Below, in pieces: positions 1 to 64,000 of a stretch of DNA of 64,000 nucleotides. Where the stretch lies: contig QPGO01000013.1 in assembly GCA_008632985.1 (NCBI GenBank), positions 186,001 to 250,000 of the forward strand, written 5' to 3'. The DNA comes from Psammoneis japonica. Lineage: Eukaryota. The notes beneath the pieces are model-generated. The model did not search any database and was not told the origin of the DNA. It saw nothing but the letters and a program-made list of their open reading frames with translations. Both the position numbers and the translations under genes were made by a program. The stretch's first letter is position 1. Every line of letters starts with the position of its first letter.

Positions 1-1799
1 CAGGGAAAGCAAATTGACCTGATTTTAAACAAGCAGATCTGTTTCTGCTTGGCACCACAGTGCGCCATCTTTCCACTGCGTGGGCATCTTGGGCACGGCA
101 ATTGTGCCAAGCTGCGCAGATGCACTCACACAAAGTGTCAAACTGGCAAGCCAATTTTGCCAAAAGGGAATCCTGCAAAGCTTCCTGTGCCACTCATTGC
201 ACTTGCCCTGGCTGCTGTGGTGGCTGTGGTTTGCCTGGAAGTTCTCAACAAACTTCAAACTCATGATGCAAAACAGGCACCTGTGCTTGCACATTTTTGC
301 AAACCAGATGATTCACTCCAAAGAGCAAGAACAAAACGCAAAACAGAAGGAAGAGTCATCATTGTGGCGTGCAGCAGGATCTGAATGGGTTCAATGTGCC
401 AGGGGGTTCTCACACCCTTTTGGTTTTTTTGTGCTGTCACACTCAGCTGTGTCCCCACCCATCTTTTCTGGGACTTGTGTTGGAGTTCCAAGGCTTGCCA
501 ACAGATGCACAGCAGTTGGCATTGCTGACCCCAACACAACCTTGCCACACCCTCCTTCAGCAGACCTTCAACAGCTTCTTTGACAGCAAGGCACCCTCCA
601 GAGATTGTTTCTTCACCCTCATCCAGCCAGCTCATTTGCTGCAATCTGCCAAGGAACACCACAAGGCACACCTTTGGGTTCCTGTTGACCTCCTGGTCTG
701 TTTCTTTTGACTCCTGTGTTGACTTCCCAGCCCTCACATCTGTGGATTCCCTTGACTTTCCAGCCCCCGTTCTGTGGATTCATCTTGACTTCTCAGCCCT
801 CAAATGACTCTGCTCTTTTGAGCATTGTGCCACAATGACCAGCACACATTCTGTCTCACCATCTCCCAACTCACTGAATGGCTTGCAAACACATTGGCTT
901 GTGTTGCTGGCTGTTGTCACCATGTCAACCAGGCACAGAAGATGGGAAGCATGCACAAAACCCGCGGCTCAACCCAAGGTTGCACAGCACCGCTGCTCCC
1001 CACAACTGCCCTTTCATTTGGTTGTCACTTGCAAAATTGTGCCTCAAGTGTTCCTTTTGCATGTTTCCAGGCTGGCCATTGTTGGTTTTCCATGGACACA
1101 CTGCCGCCATGCCCTCTCCATTTGTGCCTTGTCAAATGGCATGCTGGAGCACAGATCTTGGCACTGGGGTGCCACAAACAAATTTGCGCTGCCTCCCTTG
1201 GCTTCTTTTTCAAGCAAGGAAACTGGCTCCTGGACTTTTTAGTTTGTGCCTGTTCAACTGTGGCCTCATTTGCACACCAGGGCAAATTTCCAGAAACTCT
1301 CACGAAAACTGCTCTTCAGCAAAAGCACCTGGCACCTCAGATGCATCTCACCTGAAACCCCCAGAACAGCTCCAATGTCTGTCTCTTCTCTTTGTGTCTC
1401 TGAAGGAGACAGGGGTGCTCTGAGGAAACATTCTGGCAATGCTGGCATGCTGGAGGTGATGCCATGGTGGAGGCAGTTTGTGCAGGAAATTTGCCAAAAA
1501 ACTCCACACTTTCAAGAGGTGCTGTGGTGGAGCCAAACGTCACTCAATGACACAAAGTGCAAAATTGTGTGTTTTCAGGTGTGAAGATTTTGTCATGAGG
1601 TCATTTGGGGCTCATGGAGCTGCAACCAAAATGTTTTGTCTTTTTTCAAAATTCTTTTCAGGTGATGCTTGGCACGACTTGAAGACTGGTGCCACCAATT
1701 TTTTGTCAACTCAAACTTCTTTCCTCCCAACAACAACTGGCACTTCTCCATGGGCTCTGGTCACAGCTCATCAAAAGAAGCAAGAAGACTGCTCAACTG

Positions 1800-3944
1800 C
1801 AAGCAGAGAGAATGAAAGCAGGGCTCAGCTTGTCCCTGATGATGATGCCAGGGAGGAACTGGGTGCCACCGCTGTTGTTTTGAGGAGGGAATTCCTTCTG
1901 CAGACTCAGGCAAGAGCACCAGCATCCACAACCACCTCTTGGCTGTTTTGCAAAAGTGTGACATTGATGAAAATGAAAAGCTTGACAAGATGGAACAGGC
2001 CATGTGTAACATGGACAATGGGAACATGGGCTTTTTGAGTGACAAAAAGGTGTGCAAAAGCTCATGCATGAGAAGATGCAAACCCAAAAGGATCTGTGAC
2101 TTGTTGTGTGCATCTGACAAGAGGTTGCATGGAAACACAACAAGCCATTGTTCTTTTGCCACCATGTGATCAGCTCACTCCCACATGACTCACATTTTCT
2201 GTTGTTTCCTTTTTTGACAGCCTGAGTGCCAAGGATCTTGTCCTCTCTTTTTTGGGCTTTGCTCTTCTTCTTGCTGTTGCCGCCATTGTGGCATCCTTTG
2301 CCACCACCAACTTGGCTCAAGAAACTGCAACAAGCAACAATGTCCTTGTCATCAAAGGCACAGATGAGGTTGCAGATGACAGTCATCAAGGCCAACTCTG
2401 TCATGTCATCACTGTGGGGGATTCTTCAAGATGCCAGCTTGCCAACTGTGTGGCGGCAACTGCAGCTCCAGAGGACAGCCTGGGCTGCATGAAACAGCAG
2501 TGTGATGCCTCCAGGTCCATCAACATCATTTGGACATGGGGTGGACATGACACAGAGGAAGCAATTCTGGTCTGCCCAGGCTGTGGTCATGACAAAAGCA
2601 AGGGCATCAACAACTTCCATTTGCACAATGGAAGGTTGCTGGTGGTGGATTGCTGAGGACCCATTGATTGTGGCTTGGGTGGCACTGCTGGATTTCTGCT
2701 TTTGGCGAATGATTTCTCTGTGCACAAGATGCAGATTGCTTGTTCAACACCTGCTCTGGCACACCAGGAAGATGTGTTTGTCCCTGTCCTCCCACAGACA
2801 CCAGCTTGTGTGGCCACAGTGGTCTTCCAGTTTCTTGCAACTGTGGCAACTCCACATGTGAAGACGTCGTTGACTGCATTGCCAACCTTGCTGCCACAGA
2901 TGCTGACATCATGTGGGAGTGTTTGTTGGAGTGGTTTGTGGCAGGCCCTTTGTTGATGGGGAGGGCACACATCTTCAGGCGACTGTTGTCAACACCAACA
3001 GGGTGCCTGCAAGTTGGTCAACCTCATCCTGCTCTGACAGTCATCAGTTGATCAAGACGATTGCCATCACTCATCGTGATCAAGATGCCTGCCTTCACTC
3101 TCTTGCACAAGAGTGGAAAGCATGTGCACTTGGAGAACATGCCTCAGTTGATTTGTTTGCCACCTTCACCCCAGCTCACATGTCCAACAATGCTCCTCCC
3201 AATCTTGTTTGCGATCCCAAAATCACCAGACTGGACAAAGTCTGGCATGATGCAGAAATCTCTTTTTTGCGGTTGCTTCCTCCTTGATGGGACAAAGTGC
3301 AGAGCCAGGACTGTTGCCTCCCTTTGTTCCTGAGTTTGACAATGACCTGATGGCCATGACAATTGCTGCCACTCATGAAGGATGCATCAATGAAGTGCTC
3401 TTGGCCTTGGAGGTGGCCGCTGATGCAAACAAGTGTGAAGACAGCAAGGACAATTTTGTCTTGAAATTGAATCTCAAGGACAAGACCACTGCCAATGCCC
3501 CAGAAGAAGCAACTCATTTGGCTCTGGTGTGATGCACAATCCATTGGGCATGTCATGTGGATCTGAGTGCATGCTCGGCCATTCAAAATGAGAGGTCCTG
3601 GAACCAAGCAAGCTGAAAGCAGTGCATGAGAGGCACTTTCCTGGTTCTGCCCAGCTGGATTTTGAAAATGAGTGGACCAAGATCTGCAAGGCTTTGTTGC
3701 CCTTGTTGGGAAAGAAGGCTCTGAGAACCATTGAAACAACCAAATTCAAGGCATCAGACTGCAAGACCTGGTTTTGACAGTGGTCAACAAGATCATTGTG
3801 GGCATCATGTGCCCAAACAATGACAATGAACAGCTTCTGAATCTGGCAAATCATGCTGCACTCCACCAGCAGAAAGTTTTGGAGTGTGAAGTGGAGGTTG
3901 TGGCTGAACCTTTCATTGGAGTGCTGTTGTTGGCTCACTTGTAA
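1800..3944 (+). pseudogene. Mutated copy of the EF-hand/ferritin-like gene at 27085-29171
   Basis: Fragments such as LAQETATSNNVLVIKGTDEV, WKACALGEHASVDLFATFT and ATHEGCINEVLLALEVAA match the 27-29 kb gene. It has multiple stops and frameshifts, and most substitutions are CG->TG/CA and TA->TG/CA. Confidence 0.92.
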
Positions 3945-5611
3945 AAGGACAGAACAAGGGCGTGGCAGAATCAATCAAGCCACAACAGACCAGGGGTTTG
4001 CCACATTCCATCACACATGCTTTGGGACAGCACAAGATGCAGTTTAGTTCCCAAGAAAATGACAGTGTCTTTGGGTGGAAGCAGGTCTGTCTAAGCCATC
4101 CAGCCACTCCTCCTTGGTCTTGTGGCTGCCACCAACCTGTCCACACCAGCAGCTGTGGTGGAGCTCTGGTGCTGCAAAACTCTCTGCCTGTGAGGGTGGC
4201 TGGTGGTGCTGTTAACATGCTTCCACCAACATGTGAAAATGGCTGTCAGCACTGAGTCCCCTTGCTCACATTGTTGCACTGATGACCAACTCAGTTGTCC
4301 AGGGCTCAAATGGCAGTCCATGTGGTCCCACATGGCAGCTGCAACTGGCGCTGCCTGTTTCTTTGAGATGGCACAGCAGGCAGGCAACATGGCTCAGAGG
4401 TGTGCAAATCATCTGTTGTTGCCTGATGCTGGCTTTGTCATTCATGGCGCAAACAGCTCTGAGTGTGCAAGTGCACGTGTGCAAACAACAACAGATGACA
4501 TGTGCACCTCAGGCATGGCTCTTTTCTGTGAGCAGTGAACTCAACCTCTTGTGGGTGCACCCAAGGACAAACCCTCACAAGCAATGTTGAAATGTTGGCT
4601 GCACTTGGGGTTGCAAGCTGCAGCATTTTGTCCCTGGTGGCATCCTGCCTCCATGATGAGATCTTCAGTGCAGGCATCAAGGTTGTGACACATGATGCTG
4701 TGATGTGTTGCACACCACTGGGTAGTTGGGGCTCAGCACAAAGTTGTTGTGAGCATGGCACACATGCCATTGAGTGAGTGCTGCAACAAGGCAAGCAGTG
4801 TGGCAGCCACCCCCCTGCATTGCATCAGGAGAATCCTCAAGCACCAATGTGTTGGTCAGAAGCAGGCAGCTCTTCTCTTTTCCATGGGTCTGCTGGCACA
4901 ATGCATTGTTGTGGGCAATCTTCTGGGCAGTTGTGTCCAGCACTGTGAGCTCAAGCAAGAGTGGGTCAATTCCTTGAGCAACATCATTGTGCTTGTTGCC
5001 AGCATGGGTGCAAAACTGTGTGCTCACATTTCCAGCAAAACTGGCACACAGACTCAGAAGCTTGCTCATGCAGCTCACTCAGTGCACTCAATCTGCAGCA
5101 TGTTCTTGATCATGCTCTTTGCTCCCCAAATGTGTGGGTTGGTGTCTTGACCAACTCCAAGGCCCTCTGACAATGCCAGGGCATCCAAGCACCCATTGTG
5201 CCATTTGGTTGTCAGGCCACCCTCAGCTGCCAGCACCATGGGGTGTGGACTTGGTGTGGCTGCAGCGGGGTCACAAATGAATCCAGCGGCAGATCCAACC
5301 CTTCACTTTGTGGCGAATGTGCTGGGGGGAAGTTTCGCAGGCACAGCCCAGGCATGGTGAGCTGCTTGCAGGGGTGGCAGCAGATGCACCCAGGCCAGAA
5401 GCTGCAGTCATGCAGGCTGCCTTTGACAAGCAATTTGACAGCAGGGGTGGACATGCAGTGACTGGGTTGGCAGCGGCAGTGGTGTTGCAAACACGAGTGA
5501 GTGCCTGGCTGTTCTTGGATGCAAACTGTGCCAACAGAAGCAGCTGCAAGTGCAGTCTTCTTGGCTGGCTCCAAGGGACAGGTGCAACATGCAGCTGCCA
5601 ATGAGAGCCAA

Positions 5612-6029
5612 TGCATCACGGCGACGTGTTGCAGCCTTTAAATGTCACAAAGGGCGTGACAAAAACAACCTTTTGTCTGCATGCATGCTGCGCTGTGAAT
5701 TCACAGCGGAGTGGTTCATCGCAACCATCAGGCAGGAGGCCAGGGGTTCGAAACCCTGAGTGGGAGTTGTCTGCAGCAACGTTGATCACTGTCGAACGCG
5801 TGAAACTCTGTGCAGTTCTGTGTGTTCCTTCGTGCGTGCCCACACTGTTCCACCAAAACTGTGCAGTGTCAGCACACGTCAGTGAAGAGCCGTGTGGACG
5901 CGTGACACATGGGGAGGAGTGCAACACACAGCCACCAACAAGAGTTGGTGCATCACGGCGACGTGTTGCAGCCTTTAAATGTCACAAAGGGCATGACAAA
6001 AACAACCTTTTGTCTGCATGCATGCTGCA
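5612..6029 (+). mobile_element. Small insertion bounded by 81-bp direct repeats with a tRNA-like (Pol III A/B box) interior; SINE- or TRIM-like
   Basis: Direct repeats at 5612-5692 and 5949-6029 (tgcatcacggcgacgtgttgcagcc...catgctgc). The interior has cagcggagtgg (~5704, A-box-like) and ggttcgaaacc (~5745, B-box). The segment is absent from the paralogous block. Confidence 0.5.
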
Positions 6030-7440
6030 CAGGGGACACCTTTTGTCTGCTGGTGTGCTTGCCACTGCTGGGGAGTGTTGAGAGGACAGAGGCAGTGGTT
6101 GACCCTGTCTTGTTGTCATCCTTGTTGTGTGTCTTGCTCTTGTGCCACTTTCATGATTGGCGCTGACAACACAAGGCTCTTTCTGCACCTTTTTGCAGAA
6201 ATCAAAATGGCAGCAACAGCTGAGGTTGCTGGGGCTCCTCTCATGTGCATGGCTGGGAAACATTTCTTCAGCACACACACGCACATGCGCGCAACAGCAT
6301 CTTGCAGCTGCTGCTTTCCCCAGCCTGGCTCTGCTGTGTGATTGTGCCAGAGCATGCTCTTGATTGAGGTGTGCAGAGGCACAGGAGCAGGCAGTGTGTG
6401 TGTGTGTGGCGGAAACTGCAGAGCACCAGCTTTGCTGGGAATGCTTGCTTCAATCAGCTCTGAGAGGATGCCAGGGGAGTCAGAGAGAGAAGGGAGGGAG
6501 CAAGGTCTCTCTTGCTCCTCCAGCATGCTTGCTGCTCTGTTGTGGTGATGCTGATGATGTGCAGCCAGAGCCGGGGCTGTCATTGGGCTCAAACCTGTCA
6601 GACAATGAAGGCCGTGCATTTGGTTTTGCTTTGACTGCTTTTCTCCAGCACAAAGGAAAGCAGAATGGCGGGCAGTCCCTTGCTGATCTGACAGCTTCCT
6701 CGGAACTGCAGCTCACTGCTGTGGCTCGCATGATGTCGAGTGAATCATCGCACATCGCTCGCAAACAGCCAGAACCCCGCATCACAGGCAGACCGCAGAT
6801 GATGACCACAATTGGATTGTTGGTTCAAATCTGCCAGGGCCTAAATGACAGAGCTTCAAGAGATGACAAGAGTCTTGTGTCTTTTGAGCTCTCGCAATTC
6901 AATTATTGTCATTCATTATTTTGGACATGAGGGTCATTAGCAGGTTATAATTACGACCAAGATAGTCGTAATTGTCAAGACATTATTCATCGAATTATGT
7001 TTTGTATCATAAAGCCAGCTGGCGTCACCCAAGATCAACTTTGTTATTGTTCCTTTTTCTCTGGTTTTAGATGCATGAAAGCACTTATGATAAGAGTCTT
7101 ATGTCGAGATTATTGATATTATGTGAAAAATGGCATTTATGGCACGTTAACATAGAAGAGTCTTATGTCTTTTATTGCTCGTAATTATTGAGTCGGTCAT
7201 TATTTGAGAAAGATTCGATTGCGGTCACAACACACTCTCTAGTAGTAGAGTACGTAGATTCTACGTCTCGTCTTCAGCACTTGAATTTGCTGCCGAACCT
7301 ACGTGTGTGTCGTACATAAAATCGACGTACAGTAAGCCACGTCGTTCCACAGTATCTTTTTACGCAACGCATTGGCTGCTCTTGTGAGGACACAAAAAAG
7401 GCGAGCGTTTTTGAAAAAAGTCATCGTTTTTCAGGTCACC

Positions 7441-10071
7441 ATGAACTTGCGTTGTTTGCCATCAAGCATCCTAGCATGCTCTCTTTTCTTACCAGTTGCT
7501 CTTGGAGCAAACGTCTTTGTAAGTACTGTAGTTCGATCAGAAAAAAGCCATGGAAGTCGACGTTTAACTTAAGGTCTCTCACCCTCATTATTGTTTTGAT
7601 TTTCGCGACAGTCACTTCGAGCAAACCAAAACGCCCGCGGCAACCCCAACGAAGAAACTCACGAGTGTGAGATTAACAAGGTAGCGAGAGACTTTTACGA
7701 GGAAAAGGCACCCGAGCATTTCCTGGCTTGCGAGGACGTTACCACTAAGGAATTCATCGACCTCATCAAGGATCCTCAAGACGATATCCATCTTGCGACT
7801 GGCGACTTTGTTACCGTTACTGGTAAAGTCCTGCCTAAACCGGCTGGTCGCGGAAAGGCCATTGCTGTTTCCAAGTGGGAAAATCATCGCCCGGTCCGTG
7901 GTGGCCCAAAACGTGGCGGCCCAAATCGTGGCGGCCCAAACAACCGACGCAGGTTGGAGAACCCGTACACTGGGATACGGTCTGCTGTCGTTCTCCTCCT
8001 TCGTTTTACGGATGGAGTCGGCGGTTCCGTTTTGGGAGACAAGATGAATACTACGACCAAGGTCGACGGCGTTGCCGCTACTATCAACAACACCTTGTTT
8101 GGTGTATACGATAGGAACGCTCAAAAGACTCACGCAGGCACGTGGGACGAGTGCTCGTACGGTCAATTGGGCCTGGGCTACAACGTGAAACCTAGTGTTC
8201 CAGGCGACTACGACGATGGTACAGCCGACATCTTTTACGTCGATGTTCCGTCTGCTTGTACTTCAGGTAATGGGTACTGTACCAGAACCTTCAACACAGC
8301 GACTTCGTGCGGAACGAACGAGTATTATGGGTGGCCACAATACGCTCTGAACAAACTCGAGGCTGAGGTGCCTGGCTTTTCGCGTTCCGATTATCAACAT
8401 CGTGTAGTCATCTTTGATGATGGGGCACATGTAAACTGCAATTTCGTCGGTATGGGTAACGTTGGGTGTAGCAGTAACTACTGCTACACTTGGATCCCAC
8501 GAAAATATGCGGACAAACATCAGGTATGTCATTTGAACAGGTTTTGTGGTTAGGATTGTTATTCAGTGTGGTGAAACTGACAAAACTGCTTGACTCTTTT
8601 TCTTAAGGATTATACCCATGAACTAGGTTCGTATTGCAATGGACAGAAAAGAAGTTTAATGATGTCACAAAGTACTCACGAGCTAATCACTTTCTTCTAT
8701 TTTATAGGCCACAACATTCATTTGGCGCATGGAGGTAAATTTGGAGTTGGTGGTAACAACGGGGAATATGGCGACCTTTCATGTGCCATGGGATATGCAT
8801 TCTCGGTCCGTTGTTACAATGGCCCGCATGCCTACGAACTAGGCTGGCTTGAAGCCTTGGAATTGGACCATACCACCATTTCAGGGGCGAATCAGTATAC
8901 GCTCAACTCCATGTCGTATACCAGCACAGATTCTCTCATTTCCATCACTGGTGGAGACAATAATGTCTACTGGATTCAATACAAGACCAACCACGCGTAT
9001 GACCAGTTCATGAAGAGTGCTTGGAAAAACAACGTGCAGATCAAGAGATGGAATATGGCAACCTATGAGCGCTCCGACGACATGGGGGTTTTCCTAACCG
9101 CTGGTTCCACCTGGGATATTCCCAATAGTACTGTCACAATCATGGTAGACAGCATCGACACATCTTCGATCGACCCACATGCAATGATTACCATCGCGAG
9201 CGGTACTCCAGCTCCGACTCCAGCGCCAAGTCCTGCTCCAACCGGTACTCCGTCTCAAGCGCCGACTTCCCGTCCGACTACAGCACCGAGTTCCTCCCCA
9301 AGCCAAACTCCAAGTGGAGCCCCAACTGCTTATCCGACGTCTGCTCCGTCTCAAGCGCCGACTTCCGGTCCGACTACAGCACCGAGTTCTTCCCCAAGCC
9401 AAACTCCAAGTGGAGCCCCAACTGCTTATCCGACTTCTGCTCCGTCTCAAGCGCCGACTTCCGGTCCGACTACAGCACCGAGTTCTTCTCCAAGCCAAAC
9501 TCCAAGTGGAGCCCCAACTGCTTATCCGACGTCTGCTCCGTCTCAAGTGCCGACTTCCGGTCCGACTACAGTACCAACTTCTTCCCCGAGCCAAACTCTA
9601 AGTGGAGCGCCAACTGCTTATCCGACGTCTGCTCCGTCGCAAGCGCCGACTTCTGGTCCGACTACAGTACCGACTTCTTCCCCGAGCCAAACTCCAAGTG
9701 GAACCCCAACTGCTTATCCGACGTCTGCTCCGTCTCAAGCGCCGACTTCCGGTCCGACTACAGCACCGAGTTCTTCCCCATCGGCATCTCCCACAGCGTC
9801 TCCAACTCCAGCTCCAACTCAAGCTCCACCGCCAACTCAAGCACCGAGTTCTTCTCCATCGGCATCTCCCACAGCGGGTCCAACTGCAGCTCCGACGGCA
9901 TCTCCCACGCCGGCTCCAACTCCGGCTCCGACTCAAGCTCCACCGCCAACTCCATCGCCCACGCCGGCTCCGACTCCGCCGCCCACGTGTGCTGGTAGGA
10001 ATCAGAATTGTGTGGTGAACAGTGACTGCTGCAACTCCAAAGGTTGCAAGCCGAGTGGAAAATGCTTCTAA
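7441..10071 (+). CDS. Secreted metzincin metalloprotease (gametolysin/M11-like) with Pro/Thr/Ser stalk and C-terminal Cys-knot-like module; 4 exons
   Basis: Signal peptide MNLRCLPSSILACSLFLPVALG. Predicted introns 7519-7611, 8524-8607 and 8627-8707 (GT..AG) give a spliced HELGHNIHLAH zinc motif and a SCAMG Met-turn. An RRRL putative propeptide site is present, and the C-terminus is CAGRNQNCVVNSDCCNSKGCKPSGKCF. Confidence 0.85.
9250..9790 (+). repeat. Coding 96-bp tandem repeat (32 aa PTAYPTSAPSQAPTSGPTTAPSSSPSQTPSGA), about 5.5 copies
   Basis: Near-identical units seen directly in the DNA and in the translation. Confidence 0.92.
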
Positions 10072-10199
10072 AAACATCAGGCATCTAGTTGTTCACTAAT
10101 TGGACGAAGAGTAGTTAGAGGCAACCGCCATTTACCGGGTTTAGAAAAATGTCATGTATACTATAAAACTAGATTCATCAATGCCTCCAATGTGTTAAG

Positions 10200-11363
10200 T
10201 CATCATTTTGTGTTGTCCTTTTCCTGCTGTACCTGCGTCAAATACAGTGGCGGGAATTCGTTCCACACGTGCCCAGCTTGCTTCTGCACGCACAGATTGA
10301 GATTCAGATGCAATCATCGAAACCCTTTGGAATCAGTGCGCGTGTCTTGCGTCCAACTGGAGCCTGTGGGAAAGCCAATGCATGATCAAGTTGCTTGGTG
10401 TGCCAACTGTGCAGGGCTGCCATTGCAAGTGGCATGTGCACTGAGTTCCAAGATTTGATGGGAGCACGTGTTTCTCCATGATCTCAGTCCCTTCTCTCAT
10501 TCTTGATCCATCTGTGTTCAATCTTGCCCTCAATGCTCTTGACAGCATGACAGTCAGGATGTCTTGCTTTTGTCCCATCTGCCTTGCAGCTGGAAGGGGG
10601 GTCTTTCTTTTGTCAGCCACCATTGATTTCAGAACCATGATGGCAGATCACTTTCCCTTCTTCATTTGAGCCTCAACCTCTTTGTGCACTGCATTGACAA
10701 ATTCCTTGTAACCCAAGTTGTGTGCACCAGAAGAGGGTTGATGTCATCTGAGATGTGAAGTTCATTGTGTGTGCATGGAGACATTGCTGCCAAAGAGAAA
10801 ATCTCTCCCTCAATGCCCCCCTTGGCATTGGTGCCGATTTTGGCTGTCATTGCTTGTGCCAACTGCTTTGCTGGCTGGCTCTTTCACCCTGATCTGGTGG
10901 TCTCACCTCTGGCATCCTTGGCACACTGAGAGGATCAGACTCTCCCTCCTGCTGCAGAGGGGATTTCCTGAAACAGATTTCTTTTGAGGAGTGAGGAGCA
11001 TGTCATGCAATCATTTGGGCTTTCATGCTTGTGGCCTTTTTGCTTTGTTTCCTTGCGGCACCCAGACTCCACACTGTGGCACTTCAGATCCCCCCAATGA
11101 TGACAGAGTGAGCCAGTTCTTTCCTCAAGACCTTTTGACAAGAGAGTCACTGAGTGGCACACCCAGTGAGACACAATGGCTTGCCATGCCAGGGGCATTT
11201 TGTTTGCATCCTGCCTCCAGTGCCAAAGCTGTCATCTCCTTTGCCAGCAGCTCTCTGTCAAAGATTTCTGGACAGATGAAAGCAATGTCCAAGTCAGAGG
11301 GAATCATGAATTTTTCCACTGCCTTTGCCATTTCAGCCTCTGTCCATGATGGCCCAATGTGAT
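10200..11363. other. Hypermutated degenerate sequence of unrecognised origin (continues at 15701-17706)
   Basis: Strong TA and CG depletion with stop-riddled frames. It is interrupted by the copia insertion. Confidence 0.6.
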
Positions 11364-11639
11364 TGACAGGATTTGAACAGGATTCAGGTGCGCGCGAAAT
11401 GTCGCGCGCTGTTTAGTTCACCGCGCACAGTTTTGTGTGCTTTAGTTCCGTGCGTTCGCGCGCGATGTAGTTTGCTTTCGAGCCACAAGGCTCACAAGAA
11501 CAATGACAGTGGCCCGATTGTACCGACTCACACGTCTTTCGGCTCCTGCAACGGTCTCTGAGCGGAGACTCATCTGCCATTTAGACAGCAGTGAGGAGTT
11601 GTTGTTTGAATTCTTGCCATTTGCCTTCAATTTCTGTCA
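11364..11639 (+). repeat. Copia LTR (5')
   Basis: TGACAG...CTGTCA termini; near-identical to 14565-14840, 15425-15700 and the reverse complement of 63191-63466. Confidence 0.95.
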
Positions 11640-12587
11640 GATTAACAGTCTTGCTCATTGTCAACCCATTGAACAACCGCCATCGTCGTCGTTGATTACG
11701 ACGCCATCTCAATTCTGCGTGGACCTCCGCACATGTTCTACGTACATCGGCAAGTCTGCACGCATTCAACACCAGGCATCGGCAGGAATTTAACGTCACC
11801 GTCAAGTCTCCTTGCCGCTGGATGTCTGGATTGATGATGCCACCTTTTGTCGCTGAAGACATGCATTCAACGGTTGTGTCCAAGTCCATCCTTGATCCTC
11901 ATCCCTTGACACACCCATTCAATGGTTAACGGCCAAGAACCATGCACATTCAAGGATCTTCATCACTGAAGACACATGCACACACACATCTTCACGGCCA
12001 AGGACTTGAACCCACCATTTGGACTGCGGCTTTGCTGCCACTCTACAAGCACGCCGAGTCTGTTGCACCTGATCTGCCCTGGACTGCTGGTGCTCTGCAG
12101 TTCTGCTGGGTCCATGAGGATGACTGTGAGAGCAAGCAGCCGTGATTGCAGCCCACGTTGGGGCGAGGGTGTTTTCCCGCATTTGTTCGTTTGTCCACAG
12201 CACCTGACGCCTGTGTCAACTGGCCAGCCTGATCGGGAAATCCAACCGATGTAAAACAAGAACGGTTCGGGGGGCTTGTCCACCTCTGGTCAGCTCACCT
12301 GCAGGGGTTTGCAACCCGCTGCTCCGCTCGCAAGCAACCCAAAGTGCCGCTGGCTGCGGGTTCGGACGTGCCAGCACAACTCTACGGACCAGATGGGAAG
12401 CCCAGCACTTGACAACGAACGGGACAGCACAACCCGGCGACTTCTGATTTTAAGATGGTCCAAGATTTCAAGCCAAGTCTGGCTCAAGTCAAGTCTTTTT
12501 CAAGCCAAGTTCCAAGTCAAAACTCTGAGTCAAGATCGCGCTCTAGATTGGTTCCTGTCTTTTGTTTCTACTGCACCGTCCTCCGTC

Positions 12588-14498
12588 ATGGTTCTCACGC
12601 AACAGCAACAAACCAAAAGCTTCAAACACATTCTAGGCACTGTGCTCAATCAAGACGATGACAGCCCTCTTCGTTCTGCCCTGTCCATCAATGGGATTGA
12701 ATCGTGTGAGGAATTGTTCAGGTTCTCACCCACCCAAATTGATGCCCTCACTTGCAGAGACGGCGCCAATGCAGTGCCTTTGCCACGGACCCACAGAAAC
12801 CTCCTGGCAGCTTTGATCAGCTTCTACTTTGTCAAAGTTTGCAACGGTGATGATGTGACCAATGAACCCCAGTTGCTCGCACCCGACGAATTTCGCAACT
12901 GCCGCCTTGGTCCGGACTGCTTGACCTCTCTAGCCACTGGCGCAGCACCCTCCGCACCTGTGCCGAGTCCCTTGCCATCCAAACCAGGTGAACCCAGTGC
13001 CATTTTGACACCAGCCTTGCACTGTGCCGCCACTCAGGTGTCCCCCAGAAGTGGTGCCAGTCGCGCCCCGCATGTCTTGACCAACCCGCCTGCAAGCAAC
13101 CTCGGCCCAGTGCAGGATTGCAGCCCTTGCACAGGCCCGCACTTCGAGACCAGTTGGGACACTCCACCCATGGCTTCCAAAGCTGCAGTCTTTGCACCCC
13201 GCAAACCACGTGCTGCCAACCTCCACGTGTCGACTGCTGTCACCCTTCACAGTCTTCGTTTGGGAAGTGATGGAGATGACAACTTGCTTCTCGCATCTCC
13301 TGATGGGGAGCCTCCTTTTCCCGTCATTGAATCTGTTCACAACAGTTCAACCGGTTCATCAGATGGGGAGTTCAGGACATCCAAGCAGCTTCGTTGTCTT
13401 CGGATCCTCCAAGCATCGCACCATGAGACCAGGCCTCCTGACTGGATGCTCCAAGTCTCGCACCTCGAGACTGGGCCTCCTGATTGGATGCCTCAAGTCT
13501 CGCACCTCGAGACCAGGCCTCCTGATTGGATGCCTCAAGTGTCGTGCCTCGAGACTGGGCCTCCTGGTTGGATCCCCCAAGTCTCGTACCTCGAGACTGG
13601 GCCTCCTGATTGGATGCCCCAAGTCTCGTACCTCGAGACCAGGTCTCCTGATTGGATGTCCCAAGTCTCGCACCTCGAGACTGGGCCTCCTGATTGGATG
13701 CCTCAAGTCTCGTGCCTCGAGACTGGGCCTCCTGATTGGATGCCTCAAGTCTCGTGCATCGAGACTGGGCCTCCTGATCAGATGCCCCAAGTCTCGTGCC
13801 TTGAGACCAGGCCTCCCAACTGGACTCTCCACGTCTCGTGCCTCGAGACCGGGCCTCCCAATTGGATCCTCCATGTCTCATGCCTCAGGACTCGGCCTCC
13901 GGATTGGATCCCTCAAGTCTTGCGCCACGAGACTCGGCCTCCTGATTGGATCCCCCAAGTCTCGCACCTCAAGACTTGGCCTCCTGATTGGATCCCCGAA
14001 GACTCGTGTCACAAGACTGGCAAGTCCTTTTGGATCCCAGAAGTCTTGCAGCATGGGACTGGTTGCCCCAATCAGACATCTGCAGCCTTGCACCACAAGA
14101 TGTCTTGCTCCAATCCGATCCCCAAAGGCTTGCACCTTGAGACTCATTTCTCCAATTGGATCAGTCTCTCAGGAGATGCAGTCGGATTGGCAGAACACAA
14201 GACCACCGCTTGTGCCTTTGAACTCATGCTTGCTCTGTTCCCCGAGTCGTGCAAATGCCATGCCGCCTGCAATGTTGCCCCACCGTTCAACATTGTCAAC
14301 CAGACCAAGCTTTGCTCCTTCCATTGCAAGTGCGGATGTGGAATCCCACAAGATCCCAAGTGTGCCTTGAGCTTTGAAAAGCACAACGGCATCTGCAATT
14401 GGGGAGATGCAGCTCATCTCAAGATGACCCACTTGGAGAATGCAACGTTGCTCTCGGATCTTGATCCTTTCTTGTCTCCTCATGTTTTGGTGCTTTGA
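12588..14498 (+). pseudogene. Chimeric gag-like N-terminus / 14-aa repeat / pol remnant ORF of the copia element
   Basis: MVLTQQQQTKSFKHILGTVLNQDDDSPLRSAL resembles CoDi gag N-termini. NQTKLCSFHCKCGCGIPQDPKCALSFEKHNGICNW resembles the YKYGxxVP...NGNxxW segment preceding copia RT, with Tyr->Cys changes. Recognition is from memory, not a search. Confidence 0.65.
13434..14021 (+). repeat. 42-bp tandem repeat (PPDWMPQVS[Y/H/C]LET[G/R]), ~14 copies plus a degenerate tail
   Basis: Unit cctcctgattggatgcctcaagtctcgtgcctcgagactggg seen directly. Confidence 0.95.
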
Positions 14499-18085: not shown

Positions 18086-18099
18086 TTCGCCTCCCTAAT

Positions 18100-22451: not shown

Positions 22452-22487
22452 CTTGAACTTATTACCTTCTGTGGTGTGTATACACAA

Positions 22488-22866: not shown

Positions 22867-22870
22867 CAGG

Positions 22871-26370: not shown

Positions 26371-26396
26371 TGGATAAAAAAATGTATGCTTTCGGG

Positions 26397-49458: not shown

Positions 49459-49807
49459 TGCGATACAGCTCCAATGGTATGATTAGGCTTTCATCAAAGT
49501 GCTTCTGGTTGTTGTTGTAAACGATGTGTTGTTGTTACAAAATTGAGAAGGAAAAATGAAAAATGAATCGTGCGAGATCTCTGACCAAGCGATAAAAACG
49601 ACAAAAACTGAGCATTACGGAATATTATCCAGCCAAACCAACTCCCGGACAAGACATTTTTTTTTTTCCGATGCGAATTTGGATGTCACCCAACGAGAAT
49701 TCTGAAGAACAGAACGATGATTTTTGCGAGTTTCAGCGATCGACAGCGATTTCTTCACGTAGACTCTAGTGTGATTTGCACATAAAAAAACACATAAGTG
49801 ATTCAAC

Positions 49808-51402: not shown

Positions 51403-51730
51403 CTCACTTTCAACAGCGATTTGGTGCGAAATGCATTCTGTCATCGGCCGCATTGCTTCTGGGAATGCCGTTGGTGACACACAATTTTAGGAATCCATTG
51501 TGCATGACTGCTTTGTCACACTGCAACATCACAATTGTGACACATCCAGACAGTGCTGCAGCATTTGCATTTGCTCTATCTCCAGTGCTGTTGCAATGAC
51601 TCTAGCGTGTGTTCACCGAAAATTGTCGTTCGAAGCATTAGATCCATTGTCGTTTCCTTGTTCACGACTCGTTCTTGACAATGCAATTGCAACATGCCCA
51701 GACAGCAGTGCCATTGTAACTGCATTTGCT

Positions 51731-52870
51731 CTAGTGGCCAGTGCCATTGCAATTACTGTCTACCTGGCATCCACAGAAAATCATCGTTTGAAGCATGAGA
51801 TCCACCGTCATTTCATCAAGAATCTGCCGAACGAAGCACATGATGGCATCCTGATGTGGACGTGGCAAAACAAGGCCAAAGCCTTTCAAACGCTGGACCA
51901 ATGTTCGGAACATGAGCTCAATGGGGTTTAACTCTGGTGAGCATCTTGGAAGACACACCACCAACACATTCATGGGATTTCCGTCGGGACCCACCGTGTT
52001 CCACAGCAAATCTTGAAGTGTGTCGGCATCCCCGGCCTTGTGGATGGTGCAATTGTCCAAGATTAATGTGTCAAAGCGATTGAACCATCCAGATGCCAAC
52101 AACTGCTCCACAAATGCAACAAACGCCGCGCTCGTCCCATTGTCCTCCCCGACTGTGTGCGTGATGGGAGCTTTTGTTGCATCAACCCCCACGCACGCGA
52201 GAAGATTGCAACTCTTCCAAAAGTCCCCGTCAACCACGACATTGTCACATGTTCCACTGACAGGGTTAACACGGGCCTTCCTTGAGAAAAAATCTCCCCC
52301 TTCAAGATGCTTTTCGTCGGCAAACTTGAATCACAAGGGATTGAGTTGCGACACGAACTGCACGAAGTCACAGCAGTGCGCAATGTTTTCTGGTCTGAAT
52401 TTGTCAAGTGGAACATTGCTGGTTGCTTTGAATTTTCCTTTGAAGGCAAACCTTGAAGCAAACCATTCTGAGATGAATGATGGAGACACAATGGTGCCTG
52501 TGGCTGCGAACAGCTCTCGTACATGGCTCTCGTTCGTTCTTGTTGAATCTACGAAACGAAGCCAAAGAAGAAAGCTTTCCTCCTCTGGTGTCAAACAAAT
52601 GCTTCCAACACCTTGACACCGCTGTTGTCGACTTCTCAATTCATTAGGGTGCATCACCATGCCCTTGATGTCTGCTTCATTCTTGATTTTGTCGGCAAAA
52701 TCCCAGCCAACCTTGCAAGCTCTTGCAAGCGCAGCGGTGTCGGGGACTTCTCCAAGCGTCGTTTTTAGCTCTTCATACACCCTTGCAACCTCTAACTTCT
52801 TTAGGTATGGGCATGACTTTCCGGGAGCATAGATTCCACCATTGGAATTGATTTCAAACCTTTCAGTCAT
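51731..52870 (-). pseudogene. DDE transposase (IS630/Tc1-like) with one in-frame TGA
   Basis: FADEKH, LILDNCTIH and CLPRCSPELNPIELMF; ORFs 52331-52975 and 51731-52237 are in the same frame, separated by TGA at 52331-52333. Confidence 0.9.
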
Positions 52871-53716
52871 GCTGACAATCCTCGGAAAACTCGGTTTCAG
52901 CACCGCTCTTGAAAACTGCCTCCCGCTTTTCACACGCTCCACCTTGTCGAGCAGGACTTCAAAATCAAATAGCATGTTAAAAGAAGCACTCTTTAGAGTA
53001 TATGTCTTGGCCGAAACATCGGTGGGATGGTTGTTGTCTCACCGTACGCTTGCCGGCCATGGTGCAAAGAAAACTTTGACAGGCGAGCCCGTGCATGATT
53101 TGCTCCTCTGACGCTTCTTCGAAAAAAAGCAGCGCGTGCATCCAACGAGAAGCCGTGACTCGCATCCAAGATTATTTGACCCCACGTAGAATTGTACGCG
53201 TCCGGGAGTTGGTTTGGCTGGATAATAATCAGCATTGTATACATCTTCGAGGATAAAATGTATAATTCTCGAATACAAACATTTGATTGCTCGCCATTTT
53301 TCAAAATTCATTCGGTATTTTTCTCGACTTGGGTGTTGACAAAGCTAAACAACCTTGTTGTGTAGATAAACAAATGTCATAACATGTCATCAATAAAAAG
53401 AAGGATTTCATGAATGAGAGGTTCAAAGTGCTAATGTAAGAAGCACTAAGTATTTTCACCACAAGTAGTGTAGAAGTACTAACTCGTCAGGAATAGAAGA
53501 GCAAGTAGATTGAAGGTTGCTTTATCCCGCCCTCGGTATTTAATCCTACAGAAGAGAGCTGTAGACAGAGTGAACGAGACATGATACTAGTGCACGATGC
53601 GCTAGCTTGATGCAGTAGCTGGTAACAAGTTCAGAAAGCGAAGGAGTACCTCAACATCAAAACTAGGATCAAAACGAACAACTAATGTGATTTGTATAAC
53701 TTTAGTTTATTCATGT

Positions 53717-59996: not shown

Positions 59997-62810
59997 CTAT
60001 AACTTTGTCAACTTTTTTCGGGGGGTAGCCTTTCGCGATTTGCTTTGGGTTGCTTTATTGTTGTGCTTGCTTCGCAGCGGACTTTGCGACTTTTGCCGGC
60101 GCTCCGTTGATTGTGTCTGGTTCGGAGCATTGACCTGCTGTCGAAACCATTTCAGTATTTCGTTAATGCTTTGAAAGGTGATTGGTTTCCCTGCCACAAT
60201 GTCAACAAGGGCAAACCCATCATGATTGTTCTTTCTTCTCGACGATCCTTCTTCATCATCTGATCCAACGGTATTGTGCTCGTTGCTAAAGAGCTCGCCA
60301 TTCACAACGGTTCCATTAGACTTGATCTTGCGTCGTTTCATTTCTGTAGTCAGGCCTTCGATATCTGCTGTTGTCATGCAGATGAACACCTTTGGGCCGC
60401 CACCATCTTGAGTTATTCGACGAATAGACTGTGTAGCTGTGAGACCACAGACTCCTGGCATGTGCCAGTCCATCAAAAACAGCAACACATCATTAGGTGT
60501 CGCCGCCTCCACCATTTCGATAGCGGCCTGACCATCGGAAAGAGAGTGAATGGGCAATGATGTGGATCGAGACAGCATTTTCACCATCACCTTGACATTT
60601 ATTGGAGTATCGTCTACTACGACGATTTTGGAGCCGCTCATATTTTCGATTTCTGGGGTAACGGTTTTTCTCTTTGTTCCAGCGAGAAGAGATTCCGAAC
60701 TATCACGTCTGTCTTTCTTTAATTTCACATCGTTTTCGTCATTGCCATTCAATTCATCATAGGTTCTTTTGTGCCCATTCAATGTGGCACCATCCGCGAA
60801 AGCTTTCAGGATTGGTCTCCTCGCGTCATCCACTCTACCGGTACCTGTTCCGCCGCCAGAAATACTATCATGCTTGTGTTCATATTCGCTCAATTTCGAT
60901 AGGCTTCACTTCTTTTGGAGGATAGGCTAGAGAGTTTGTCACTGAGTCACCGAGAGAAGAGGGCGAAATTGGGTTGGAATCTGATACGGAAGTATGCAAA
61001 GAAGCTGTGGACTTGCAAGTGCAGCCCGAAACGCTTCCCCCATCCTGACCAGCGGAAGAGGTCGTCGGAAGACCGCATGTGCGTCCTTTAACTCGCCAAA
61101 AGATTTGGAAACAAATCGTGTCCACAATAGACAAACACTAGCCACCCCGACTGCTTCATTTGCGATACCAGGATTGGAATCAGAATCTTCGATCATACTG
61201 GAGAAATGCAAGTCGACGACATTCATTTGTCGCGCAGTCCTTGCGTTCAATGGCATCGGTCAATTCCATGCGTGATTGAACAACGTGTATGTTTGCATTC
61301 AACGGTGCCATTGATCTGACAAGGCTTTCACAGGAGGTCCGGGACTCCTGTTCCGAGTCCCATAAAACTATTCGACACACAGGTGCGTTAAGGTTCAACG
61401 TTTCAGATTCGACGTTCTTTTGCTCCTTCTTAAACTCGAGAGTAAAGTAGAATCGAGTACCCGACCAGGCTTCCCATCAACTCCAATATTTCCTCCCATC
61501 ATCTGCACAAAATCTCTGCAAATAGTAAGCCCGAGACCAGTGCCCTTGTGACGACGCGAAACTGCGCCTTGTTCACCTTGGTGGAAAGGCTCAAACAACA
61601 TTTCTGGGTTTTGTTCATGTATGCCGACGCCGGTATCTTCGACTTCAAAGTCACAAATCACCTTACCAGACACTGTCGGAGGCGACATTTTTACCCGGAT
61701 TGTGATGCTTCCCGTTTCGGTAAACTTCAAGGCATTTCCGACTAGATTGAGGAGTACTTGTCTGAGCTTCACTGCCATGCCCCTAACTTCGGCTGTAGTG
61801 TCTCCCGTAAACTCCACTTTGAGTTTGATGCCCTTGGCTTCTACCGTCGCTGCAAAGATCTCCGCGACGTCATCAATGCAGGATGCTAATCGAAACGGTC
61901 TCTCCATTGCCACTAGATCCTCCTTCGCCGCCATCAAAACGTCATCACATATACCCAAGATGCTGTCAAGACATCTTTTCAAAGTCAACGCATTTTCCAT
62001 ATCATACTCGGTCATTGATTCAGAGTTCACCAAGAGATCAACACTTCCAACGATACCGTTCAGGGGAGTTCTGAGTTCGTGTGTGACTCGATGAAGCACA
62101 TCGCGTCTTATTTCAGCAAGCTTAGCAGCCGACCGCGAAGCCTGGGCATGCACCAATAGGGAGTTTTGCGACTGTCTTACTATTGACACAAGGACCGCGC
62201 TGTTCCCCAAAATCACCATGGCCAGGGGAATGAATCTGTCGGCGAATATTATTCCCTTCTGATGAGGCGCAATCGGTTCTGAAATGCAGTTTCCACTCAA
62301 GTCTACAGCGAAAATCACCAACAACCCTGCCATCACACCAGCAGCTGATATCAGAACTGCTTTTGGCGTCCGAAACAAGAATCCACAAGCACATGGAATA
62401 AATCCATAGATCGCTGGGACTAACGAAGCTGAGCATCCCTGATGCAAGGAATGTCTCAGAATCGCCAGGATATATGATGCGATGTACCAACCCATTTGTG
62501 TCAACAAATCTTCGCAGATAATTGACGTGAACATCCCGAATACTGAAAGAAGCAACGGATCCATGACTGCGTTAAGTTCCTCCCCTCCAATATACCCTAA
62601 TAATGCCCCCAGGCCAGCTCCACAAATGAGAACGAGTCGACTCCACCGGCAAGTTTTCATTACCAATTCCAACTCGACTGCGTCGTGTAGCTCCTTCATT
62701 TTCTCATCGTTTTTCACTAATTCAAAAAGAGACGGTAACAGACTGCTGCTACTGTCACCTTCTATGCGAGAAGGAATACCGCTGTTGCGGCGCTGATTAG
62801 GAAAACCCAT
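59997..62810 (-). pseudogene. Membrane-bound hybrid histidine kinase (HisKA-HATPase-receiver) broken by several frameshifts
   Basis: THELRTPLNG H-box, QVLLNLVGNALKFT, DTGVGI, GTGLGL, and receiver VVDD..LMDWHMP..GKP. Frame changes at ~61462, ~61230, ~61010 and ~60895. Confidence 0.8.
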
Positions 62811-63190
62811 TGTCAAGCTTGCTCCTCTTTCCTCTTGGACTTGCGGCTTGATGCTTTGCGATGCAGTTCTCTGTTCTATGCGTTCTTTGTGTTCTGCTTC
62901 CTGGCTTGCGCGCAGAAAGTTGACATGCCCGCCTGGCTGTCACATTGTCACAACTGGGCGCCGTTCCAGTTCCCGAGCACCTCAACTTGCTCCCAAATTG
63001 AAGGAAGTCCACAACTCGAGTTGTGGACTTTGACGCAAGCTGGGCTGGAAGTTGCTGTGTTGACAGACCAACAACGTGAAGCTGCTTTTTCATGAACAAG
63101 CAAGGTTGTAGTAAAAAATGCCTCCCAAGAGCCGAGTTCAAACAAAGATCAACGGCTGCTTTTTCTGCTTCACACATGGAGCACGCGGGG

Positions 63191-63466
63191 TGACAGAAAA
63201 TGAAGGCAAATGGCAAGAATTCAAACAACAACTCCTTGCTGCTGTCTAAATGGCAGATGAGTCTCCGCTCAGAGACCGTTGCAGGAGCCGAAAGACGTGC
63301 AAGTCGGCACAATCGGGCTGCTGTCATTGTTCTTGTGAGCCTTGTGGCTCGAAAGCAAACCACATCACGCGTGAACGCGCGGAACTAAAGCACACAAAAC
63401 TGTGCACGGTAAACTAAACAGCGCGCGATGCTTCGCGCGCACCTAAATCCTGTTCAAATCCTGTCA
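63191..63466 (-). repeat. Copia 3' LTR, same family as 11364-11639
   Basis: 276-bp reverse-complement match; adjacent PPT (ctccccagt on the + strand). Confidence 0.95.
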
Positions 63467-64000
63467 CTCCCCAGTTTGCTTGAGGAGCCACAGAAACAGA
63501 TTCGACTTCGGATGGAATGAAGTTCCAGAACATGAGGGGGCGGAGAAGGTCCCAGATTTGGGAGCAACCCCAATGCTTGCTGAGAATGTCAGCAGGGTTG
63601 CGGGAGCCTTCGATGAAGTGGAACTCAAGGTGGCCAGAGGCAATTGCCTCACGCACACGGTGGAACGACAGTGCGGTGTGTCGCTTGTGTAACTTGGAGT
63701 GCGGGATGGTGGCACTGTCTACAACCGACTTGTTGTCACCGAACATGCAACTGACATTACGGATCGGGACGCCAAGGTGGCGCAGGGTGATGCGCAGGTC
63801 GATAATCTGCTCAACACAAGTCCTTGCGGCAACAAATTCAGACCCGCAGGTCGCAGTCTCCACGGTGGCTTGTTTCTTAGAGAACCAATCAGCCGGGAAT
63901 TTGTTGAGGAAGTGGAGCATTCCCATGACAGAGCGTCCGGTGAGCATGCAATGGCACAAGTTTGCATCGACGTAGTGGGTGGCAGTGACGAACTTGCCAA
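63191..64000 (-). mobile_element. 3' end of a Ty1/copia (CoDi-like) retrotransposon with RNase H domain; runs off the window
   Basis: WFSKKQATVETATCGSEFVAA, FGDNKSV, SFHRVREAIA and NPADILSKHW copia RNase H motifs, with Tyr->Cys/His changes. Confidence 0.95.

Follow-up and report, generated by a model that had tools for sequence, protein, structure and literature searches.

What removes the dinucleotide TpA from one kind of DNA and leaves its immediate neighbour alone? The question is raised by a 64,000-nucleotide stretch of contig QPGO01000013.1 from the diatom Psammoneis japonica (assembly GCA_008632985.1, positions 186,001 to 250,000; hereafter the window, in whose numbering all coordinates are given), where tracts holding transposons and a duplicated gene are nearly devoid of TpA. 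An earlier note on this sequence had proposed a mutator that acts on DNA, converts A:T to G:C specifically at TpA on either strand, and is confined to tracts of transposons and duplicates. That proposal is supported by a pair of long terminal repeats (LTRs), which shows that the changes arose in situ, by the substitution spectrum of a duplicate and by the conserved tyrosine columns of a retrotransposon protein. We consider it probable that the tracts record a local TpA mutator working in place in silent, transposon-rich DNA through enzymatic deamination of adenine, of the type seen in Bigelowiella natans.

The earlier note had known of no published description, but de novo appearance of the same signature in B. 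natans is documented in a 2026 preprint (Mettrop et al., bioRxiv 10.64898/2026.01.13.699255). According to the accessible text of that preprint, which is the source for all statements on B. natans made here, 231 of 302 new nuclear point mutations in mutation accumulation lines fell within two integrated viral regions, and 230 of these 231 were A to G or T to C. The GC-biased mutations were all at TpA and occurred in some lines only, at approximately 6e-7 per site per generation and approximately 1000 times the background rate; TpA-poor coding sequences were enriched in DDE and reverse transcriptase (RT) domains, and the authors propose an ADAT2-like DNA adenine deaminase. The accessible text does not contain the word CpG, nor does it analyse transposon copies or LTR pairs (10.64898/2026.01.13.699255). 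A full-text literature search returned this preprint as the one paper with the signature and found no report of TpA hypermutation in diatoms; in term look-ups, the accessible text of PMC9998398, PMC2806351, PMC12344493 and 10.1101/2025.10.24.684338 proved to mention neither TpA nor hypermutation.

TpA and CpG are depleted in sharply bounded tracts

Dinucleotide content was expressed as the ratio of observed to expected counts (o/e), and tracts were delimited by segmentation with 400-bp windows. Over the whole window the GC content is 0.49, and o/e is 0.39 for TA, 0.73 for CG and 1.37 for both TG and CA. In 2-kb windows at 1-5000 and 23001-25000, TA falls to 0.02-0.06 and CG to 0.08-0.21, with TG/CA at 1.76-2.03; 2-kb windows of the host part at 32-49 kb gave 0.42-0.69 for TA and 0.85-1.06 for CG. 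Segmentation resolved five depleted tracts with TA o/e of 0.02-0.06 (1-6750, 10351-11350, 12551-17650, 23051-26250 and 29551-31350) and a sixth at 49951-52550 with 0.06-0.09, but 0.28 at 51551-51950. The host-like DNA between and after them has TA at 0.48-0.69 and CG at approximately 1.0. The borders are sharp to at most 100 bp, passing from 0-1 TA to 6-9 TA per 100-bp bin across one or two bins, and they leave out two islands of host genes. The claim that repeats had lost TA while host genes remained normal was thus borne out by both sliding-window ratios and segmentation.

Taken as units, tract 1 (1-6750; TA 0.02, CG 0.16, TG/CA 1.88) is saturated and continues past the left end of the window. 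Tract 2 (10351-17704) has TA at 0.02-0.11, with exceptions at 11351-11950 (0.30) and 12351-12550 (0.25), and CG at 0.05-0.56 in its depleted parts. The first base of saturated tract 3 (22867-26250; TA 0.02, CG 0.14) lies directly after a gypsy LTR, and saturated tract 4 (29551-31350; TA 0.03, CG 0.17) is the distal part of one copy, copy B, of a duplicate.

For counting, the first five segmented tracts were pooled with two borders refined to LTR ends (12551-17704 and 22867-26250), giving 18,083 nt. This set contains 39 TA, against 681 predicted from the host frequency, and 266 CG, against 1016 predicted. Per 1000 dinucleotides, TA and CG together lose 77.0 and TG and CA together gain 81.5; gain and loss being nearly equal, the books balance. 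GC content is 0.508 in the pooled tracts and 0.482 in host DNA. The earlier note had described a loss of TpA only; the TpA part of this description stands, but CpG has also been lost from the same old tracts, which that note understated.

The losses reshape the reading frames. TAA/TTA words drop from 16.5 per kb in host DNA to 1.8 per kb in the tracts, and TAG/CTA words from 17.5 to 1.6 per kb; counted over both strands, TAA and TAG amount to 3.4 per kb in saturated tracts versus 34 per kb in host DNA, approximately tenfold fewer. Long frames consequently stand open in all six frames of the saturated tracts. A Pfam search found transposon domains in none of the 138 stop-free open reading frames (ORFs) of the tracts, returning two weak and unrelated matches.

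A gypsy retrotransposon was mutated after integration

Across the window, a Pfam search of 148 stop-free ORFs of at least 122 aa yielded two proteins of mobile elements, both encoded on the minus strand: a Ty3/gypsy Pol at 18678-21296 and a DDE_3 transposase at 51734-52330. The Pol belongs to a Ty3/gypsy LTR retrotransposon at 17705-22866 (minus strand), whose LTRs (17705-18087 and 22486-22866) are 96% identical and whose 4-bp target-site duplication, CAGG, is intact. The element is nested in an older saturated tract, the sequence of which resumes exactly at the LTR ends. Pol carries RVT_1, RT_RNaseH and Integrase_H2C2 domains and matches Ty3 (PDB 7q5b) with E=1e-69; a gag-like ORF is present at 21300-22532 (minus strand), and translation places the integrase core in another frame downstream of the pol ORF.

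The two LTRs differ at 15 positions, of which nine are single differences between TA and TG/CA and six make up three TG/CA doubles; an adjacent TG/CA pair is explained by two independent hits on one ancestral TA. All 15 differences of this one pair therefore lie at TpA-derived dinucleotides, the spectrum that the TpA-specific proposal predicts, and there are none at 23 CpG or 269 other positions (p=4e-12). Counted by site, 12 of 32 TA have changed versus 0 of 23 CpG (p=6e-4), so that in this young element the TpA change has been faster than CpG decay. Since LTRs are identical at integration and these now differ, the mutator acts post-integration, on chromosomal DNA.

The same process can be read in the protein. 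Conserved tyrosine columns were defined as those with Tyr in at least 70% of 120 gypsy Pol homologues; at the 23 such columns the residue in the window is His in 10 cases, Cys in 7, Tyr in 4 and Phe in 2, whereas the other conserved columns are retained at 330 of 402 (p=1.6e-10), Phe at 19/19 and Pro at 28/29. Tyr accounts for 0.57% of this Pol, compared with a homologue mean of 3.87% (minimum 2.87%). Conserved Ile columns are often Met (5) or Val (5), as expected from changes of ATA to ATG and of T|AT to T|GT. Relative to Ty3, YLDD has become CVDD, GYH has become GHH, KYEY has become KCEC and NYY has become NCC. Every motif that the earlier note had quoted was found: CVDD (20091-20102), MGHHH (20259-20273), KCEC (20193-20204) and CTDH (19461-19472) in this Pol, and CLPRCSPE and ATCGSE in a transposase and a copia fragment, respectively. 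With its catalytic YxDD reading CVDD, the gypsy copy is inactive. Related gypsy loci from metagenomes (n=79), retrieved with a Tyr-containing pattern and kept only as near-intact copies, have TA o/e of 0.56-1.06 (median 0.75), and 0 of the 79 are TpA-depleted.

These data bear on whether the changes could have been made in RNA, by A-to-I hyper-editing of transposon transcripts that was then fixed via reverse transcription. ADAR-type enzymes do prefer a 5' U, and a retrotransposon interior more mutated than its LTRs is what such a route would leave; ADARs, however, are an animal enzyme family, and the LTR-LTR differences, being post-integration, contradict it. Both strands are hit, with 7 Tyr to Cys and 10 Tyr to His changes, and so are a DNA transposon, a duplicated host-type gene and non-coding flanks. 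We therefore regard an RNA origin as extremely unlikely.

The gypsy element is a mosaic. Its interior (18701-22485) has TA o/e of 0.22-0.28 and CG of 0.76-1.01, and its 3' kilobase (17705-18700) is unmutated, with TA at 0.79-1.02; TA is retained in the integrase core (o/e 1.02) and in the 3' LTR (0.79), and DDYGI and STYHTT are intact. The switch point, at approximately 18,690, coincides with the frame change, and RHPWP and ACDRG are mutated directly before it. A pre-mutated interior, recombination between copies, or a signal targeting part of the element would each fit.

A duplicated gene reveals the spectrum and one spared copy

Copy A (1641-6802, plus strand) of an approximately 5-kb duplicate lies in a saturated tract and represents a hypermutated paralogue of the copy B gene; the two copies share 70-79% identity. 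The 53 TA of copy B are read in copy A as TG (23), CA (21) or TA (3), and its 197 CG as TG (97), CA (77) or CG (8). With both strands folded, A to G changes reach 42.6% at TpA (46/108 A sites), compared with 6.7-8.5% at ApA, CpA and GpA, so the enrichment at TpA over other contexts that the earlier proposal implied is present; C to T changes reach 45.2% at CpG versus 5.4-7.3% in other contexts, and the 7.3% at CpA is thus at background level. GC-biased gene conversion was considered as an explanation and dropped, ApA, CpA and GpA all being at background.

Both strands are used, TA having become TG (23) about as often as CA (21), as with Cys (7) and His (10) in the gypsy Pol. The order of TG and CA along the duplicate was evaluated by runs tests: TA events form 24 runs versus 22.9 expected, CpG events alone 76 versus 86.8 (P=0.054), and strand-coordinated runs were not found over the duplicate as a whole (112 runs versus 108.8 expected). 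Because TG and CA are equally common and randomly ordered, there is no hint of processive action on one exposed strand. Compared with copy A, tract 4 has 31 TG/CA double differences.

We considered whether a dedicated deaminase is needed at all, or whether error-prone repair synthesis restricted to heterochromatin, or biased mismatch or base-excision repair (for example, T:G-type to C:G at TpA), could yield this spectrum. Events that are independent at each site and without strand runs, unlike those of processive single-strand deaminases, are compatible with repair, and sharp tract borders at gene units would fit any chromatin-restricted repair pathway. The near-exclusive restriction to transitions at one dinucleotide, with a dependence on the 3' base described below, argues against it. 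A pol-eta-like synthesis, which the earlier note had listed as a candidate, does not fit the data: the mutation signature of pol-eta is WA (W, A or T), but A to G at ApA is 6.7%, not elevated, versus 42.6% at TpA. Further, we know of no primary lesion that would give a mismatch at TpA without deamination of adenine. Repair without a deaminase is thus an unlikely account.

The two copies have had different fates, copy B being unmutated at 26251-29550 and its partner in copy A saturated. This observation is central to the possibility that duplication itself is the trigger, through a homology sensing like that of repeat-induced point mutation (RIP), possibly premeiotic, with TpA in place of CpA as its target. 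Every target seen here is a multi-copy family or a duplicated block, and a DNMT4 related to fungal RID is present in many diatoms, as given in the accessible text of PMC9998398. However, a duplicate at 26251-29550 that is unmutated opposite a saturated partner is difficult to reconcile with such a trigger, as is the sparing of the gypsy 3' kilobase and LTR, which are equally repeated. The mutated tracts extend into flanks beyond the repeats and end at gene units, not at repeat ends; strand-coordinated clustering is lacking; and the main target in B. natans is single copy (10.64898/2026.01.13.699255). Repeat association in the RIP sense, as the earlier note had it, is therefore not supported, and we regard duplication as a rather improbable trigger.

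Within copy A, a weak Ala_racemase_N match (4194-4535, plus strand; E=0.0026, below cut-off) may hint at a trace of former coding content in the distal duplicated block.

Direction, site context and order of loss

Contigs assembled from the reads of a sequencing run (X1) include, at high depth, other copies of the families in the window. Twenty of the 22 listed differences between these contigs and the window set TA/CG against TG/CA, and at 12 of the 22, other family copies have TA and the window TG/CA. Together with the proteins, the duplicate and the normal TA content of the gypsy relatives, these copies make four lines of evidence which indicate that the direction of change is from TA to TG/CA, and not the reverse.

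The bases flanking TpA influence its fate. Among surviving TA, the form YTAR (Y, pyrimidine; R, purine; for example TTAA, CTAG and TTAG) accounts for 17 of the 29 sites in saturated tracts and for 35 of the 80 in interiors of partly mutated elements; the figure for host DNA is 270 of 1352 (p=7e-6 and 4e-6, respectively), and R-TA-Y is depleted among the survivors. The strand that is changed tracks the 3' base, being, at sites with a known ancestral state, the one on which a pyrimidine follows the A: YTAY gave TG 11 times and CA once, RTAR gave TG twice and CA 8 times (p=0.0015), and the single events in the LTRs are at RTAY in 9/9 cases. By the base 3' of the A, the fraction of sites hit is 0.35 for C, 0.31 for T, 0.21 for G and 0.08 for A. 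Three separate views, each with small numbers, thus agree on T-A-Y as the apparent preferred site.

Composition suggests an order of loss. The gypsy interior has TA at 0.22-0.28 with CG at 0.76-1.01, the interior of the Tc1-like element has TA at 0.06-0.09 with CG at 0.61-0.77, and in the old tracts both are near zero; CpG change is 0/23 in the young LTR pair, yet CG o/e is 0.05-0.17 in old tracts. TpA would appear to be lost first and CpG later.

This order is relevant to a reading in which N6-methyladenine (6mA) at TpA of silent DNA is lost by 6mA deamination, in parallel to 5-methylcytosine (5mC) at CpG. It would account for the erasure of both palindromic dinucleotides, TpA and CpG, each to TG/CA, and for strands that are hit equally. 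Yet TpA loss is earlier than CpG loss and separable from it (12/32 TA versus 0/23 CG in the LTR pair), and the accessible text of 10.1101/2024.10.28.620566 places eukaryotic 6mA at ApT and links it to transcription, not to silent TpA. We consider the 6mA reading very unlikely.

Read support for the mutated sequence

The X1 contigs (Logan assembly) are built from exact 31-letter words. A single contig of 4367 nt, at approximately 60x word depth, spans 603-4965 with 14 letters differing, and the mutated sequence is therefore present in the raw data. Where X1 contigs are at single-copy depth, they can be compared with the window over 9275 nt of tract, which show 24 differences, and over 3174 nt of host DNA, which show none (p=0.0015). 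Fifteen of the 18 listed single-copy differences are of the same class (11 CG versus TG/CA, 2 TA versus CA, and one TG/CA double, which counts as 2 positions), a pattern that continuing mutation between alleles or strains would give. Among the listed data sets, no RNA data carried 1-10000.

Long-read callers are known to miscall methylated motifs, and the library type of run X1 is unrecorded; we therefore weighed the possibility that base calling or assembly went wrong at modified bases, so that modified A appears as G and 5mC as T. Against it, 31-letter words at approximately 60x depth rebuild the tract in one 4367-nt contig with 14 differences, and real mutation fits the pattern in the proteins, the unequal fates of the duplicate copies and the borders set by an insertion. 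In B. natans the signature was called from Illumina data (10.64898/2026.01.13.699255). We give an artefact next to no weight.

Other elements and tract 2

The DDE_3 transposase ORF (51734-52330, minus strand, identified by Pfam; CLPRCSPE at 51932-51955) lies within a candidate Tc1/DDE_3-type DNA transposon at 49613-53237 (minus strand). Candidate terminal inverted repeats (TIRs) of 38 nt at 49613-49650 and 53200-53237 are 89% complementary. The interior (49951-52550) has TA o/e of 0.06-0.09, or 0.28 at 51551-51950, and CG of 0.61-0.77. The TIRs and the outer few hundred bases hold 1-4 TA per 100 bp versus 0-2 in the interior; the ends of this element, like the gypsy LTRs, seem less affected than its middle.

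A copia element on the minus strand (63187-64000; LTR 63187-63516) is cut by the end of the window, leaving the C-terminus of Pol (63432-63998), whose best long relatives carry RVT_2. Both conserved Tyr columns of this fragment have changed, one to Cys and one to His, and the motif ATCGSE is found at 63837-63854. Of the two copia elements described in the earlier note, this one holds as a Pol fragment, but a second copia coding region was not found, 9/9 copia Pol queries matching only 63432-63998 in the window; what else is copia-related consists of three LTR-like repeats in tract 2 (11361-11640, 14562-14841 and 15422-15701) of the same family as the LTR at 63187-63516.

Tract 2 also contains an 860-bp tandem duplicate (13981-15700). 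Of the 31 differences between its units, 28 are CG versus TG/CA (13), TA versus CA (1) or positions of TG/CA doubles (14); this duplicate appears to have arisen after TA exhaustion. Between the copia-LTR-like repeats lies an ORF of 747 aa (12255-14495, plus strand) with no Pfam match. Within it, at 13318-14157, a 42-bp unit is repeated in tandem at least 14 times, and the depth of X1 contigs in the region of this ORF is 100 to 1000 times the single-copy level.

Host genes and the spared islands

The first 31 kb of the window are a transposon-rich region with two spared islands. Island 1 (6751-10350, plus strand; TA 0.69, CG 1.01) comprises an ORF at 7600-8550 and a spared gene at 8581-10068 (plus strand) with a weak gametolysin (peptidase M11) match. 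The latter contains PT repeats, formed by 96-bp tandem units of 87-91% identity at 9116-9883. Island 2 (26251-29550, plus strand; TA 0.48, CG 1.01) is the unmutated part of copy B. Its ORFs at 27430-28578 and 28566-29168 represent a hypothetical protein conserved among diatoms (109 matches), with relatives among hypothetical proteins of Seminavis, Skeletonema, Thalassiosira and other diatoms.

Elsewhere, Pfam identified a phosphoglycerate kinase (37586-38827) and an eIF4G-like MIF4G/MA3 protein (39213-42350), along with an alpha/beta hydrolase, a class-3 lipase, a Fea1-like protein, ribosomal protein L17e, leucine-rich repeat proteins, a ubiquilin-like protein, a response regulator and a histidine kinase. 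The phosphoglycerate kinase is 88-91% identical to diatom enzymes (named matches: Phaeodactylum, Minutocellus and Dactyliosolen), so that the host genes by themselves point to a diatom source. Inside its gene, 300 bp at 38351-38650 have TA o/e of 0.13 with CG at 0.78, which is probably due to the codon usage of a highly expressed gene and not to the mutator. On the minus strand at 60000-62939, the response-regulator frame adjoins the histidine-kinase frame (HisKA and HATPase_c), and the two may belong to one gene for a hybrid sensor kinase, interrupted by an intron or a change of frame.

A probable TpA mutator in silent DNA

The window itself displays the signature, its direction, its in-place origin, its use of both strands, its tract borders and its T-A-Y context. 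As the probable cause, we propose a mutator that would act in place on double-stranded chromosomal DNA and convert the A of 5'-TpA-3' to G on either strand, preferring T-A-Y, avoiding T-A-A, and stopping within approximately 100 bp of the edges of active gene units. In young insertions it would run ahead of CpG decay, and in old tracts it would have removed approximately 94% of TpA. Enzymatically, an ADAT2/TadA-like or other deaminase would convert adenine to inosine, a base that pairs like G. The target would be silent chromatin (5mC, H3K9me3/H3K27me3) and not repetition as such; we favor silent-chromatin targeting over homology sensing because one duplicate copy is spared and because the viral insert of B. 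natans is single copy (10.64898/2026.01.13.699255).

In coding sequence such a mutator would turn Tyr into Cys or His and ATA into ATG or ACA, would abolish TAA and TAG stops, and would destroy catalytic motifs such as the YxDD of reverse transcriptase and the Y..YSPE of transposase. As a change of TA to TG/CA makes no new stop, frames stay open, and elements are killed by missense, chiefly through the loss of Tyr. The change of CpG to TpG/CpA in the tracts is most simply a second, slower process, the deamination of 5mC, because diatoms methylate transposon CpG; according to the accessible text of PMC9998398 and PMC2806351, transposon CpG is methylated in diatoms, with DNMT5a in Phaeodactylum, and 5mC co-localises with silent chromatin marks.

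Several points weigh against this proposal. The context counts are small, the 3'-base fractions resting on 50 hit sites. The gypsy interior is much more TpA-depleted than the LTRs and 3' kilobase of the same element, and some of its mutations may have come from an already mutated parent copy or through recombination. The 79 metagenome loci show how much TA the family normally contains but do not tell how common mutated copies are. Run X1 may be the source sample of the window and so is not independent, and its library type is unrecorded. Finally, the CpG loss of the old tracts has no counterpart in the accessible text on B. natans, and the two cases may not be identical.

The proposed mutator has consequences for annotation and beyond. 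False long ORFs and hidden transposon domains mislead gene callers and repeat annotators, and ages based on LTR divergence will be wrong, all 15 differences here having come from the mutator. The T-A-Y motif narrows the search for the enzyme, and the mechanism is testable since diatoms have genetic tools. The B. natans signature in a diatom turns a one-species curiosity into a possibly widespread mode of genome defence in major marine algae. More tentatively, it is possible that diatoms and chlorarachniophytes, and perhaps the whole SAR group (Stramenopiles, Alveolata, Rhizaria), share an old, heterochromatin-coupled defence that edits DNA adenine at T-A-Y by means of a natural chromatin-targeted deaminase. 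If this were true, the shared defence would be faster than 5mC decay and would disable mobile elements by Tyr to Cys/His changes with their frames left open, and the two processes would together erase both self-complementary pyrimidine-purine dinucleotides from silenced DNA.

Comparison with known systems

The usual mutation bias is G:C to A:T, and hypermutation from A:T to G:C runs opposite to it; to our knowledge, no natural enzyme has been identified for such hypermutation of chromosomal DNA. Among known adenine deaminases, TadA/ADAT2 act on A34, which follows the invariant U33, and the context in bacterial tRNA-Arg is U-A-C-G, that is, T-A-Y. This context resembles the T-A-Y found here, a resemblance and not a test, and we know of no natural DNA-editing role of TadA/ADAT2 in diatoms. 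APOBEC3 and ADAR are alike in being deaminase-type editors of mobile or foreign nucleic acid with a preference for neighboring bases. They act, however, on single-stranded cDNA or double-stranded RNA and leave strand-biased runs of C to T or A to G during replication, whereas the changes in the window are post-integration, on both strands and without runs.

Fungal RIP, as in Neurospora, is likewise heavy, limited to transitions, dinucleotide-specific and inactivating for transposons and duplicates, but runs the other way. RIP changes C to T mainly at CpA and makes TpA, whereas here A changes to G at TpA and TpA is destroyed; RIP leaves AT-rich DNA full of stops, whereas here stops are removed and GC is slightly raised (0.508 versus 0.482); and RIP needs duplication and mutates both copies, whereas here one duplicate copy is spared. 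The 5mC decay of vertebrates and diatom transposons converts CpG to TpG/CpA and so gives the same two product dinucleotides; it explains only the CpG half of the pattern, the TpA loss being independent of it and faster in young elements.

The closest match is B. natans. On the evidence of the accessible preprint text (10.64898/2026.01.13.699255), both cases have TpA changing to TpG/CpA on either strand, in particular tracts beside an otherwise normal genome, and a long-term loss of TpA with a gain of CpA and TpG. They differ in lineage, a diatom (Stramenopiles) here and a member of Rhizaria there, and in targets, which are LTR retrotransposons, a DNA transposon and a duplicated host-type gene here and giant-virus and virophage inserts there. 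Saturation is further advanced here, with TA o/e of 0.02 compared with 0.45 for the nucleocytoplasmic large DNA virus insert of B. natans. CpG loss accompanies it here and is not described in the accessible text for B. natans; the T-A-Y preference is not described in that preprint's main text. De novo occurrence has been seen in B. natans, whereas here the signature is read from sequence. The diatom case is thus a further instance of a hypermutation so far described only in the 2026 B. natans preprint, to which it adds saturation on ordinary transposons, the T-A-Y context and a co-occurring loss of CpG.

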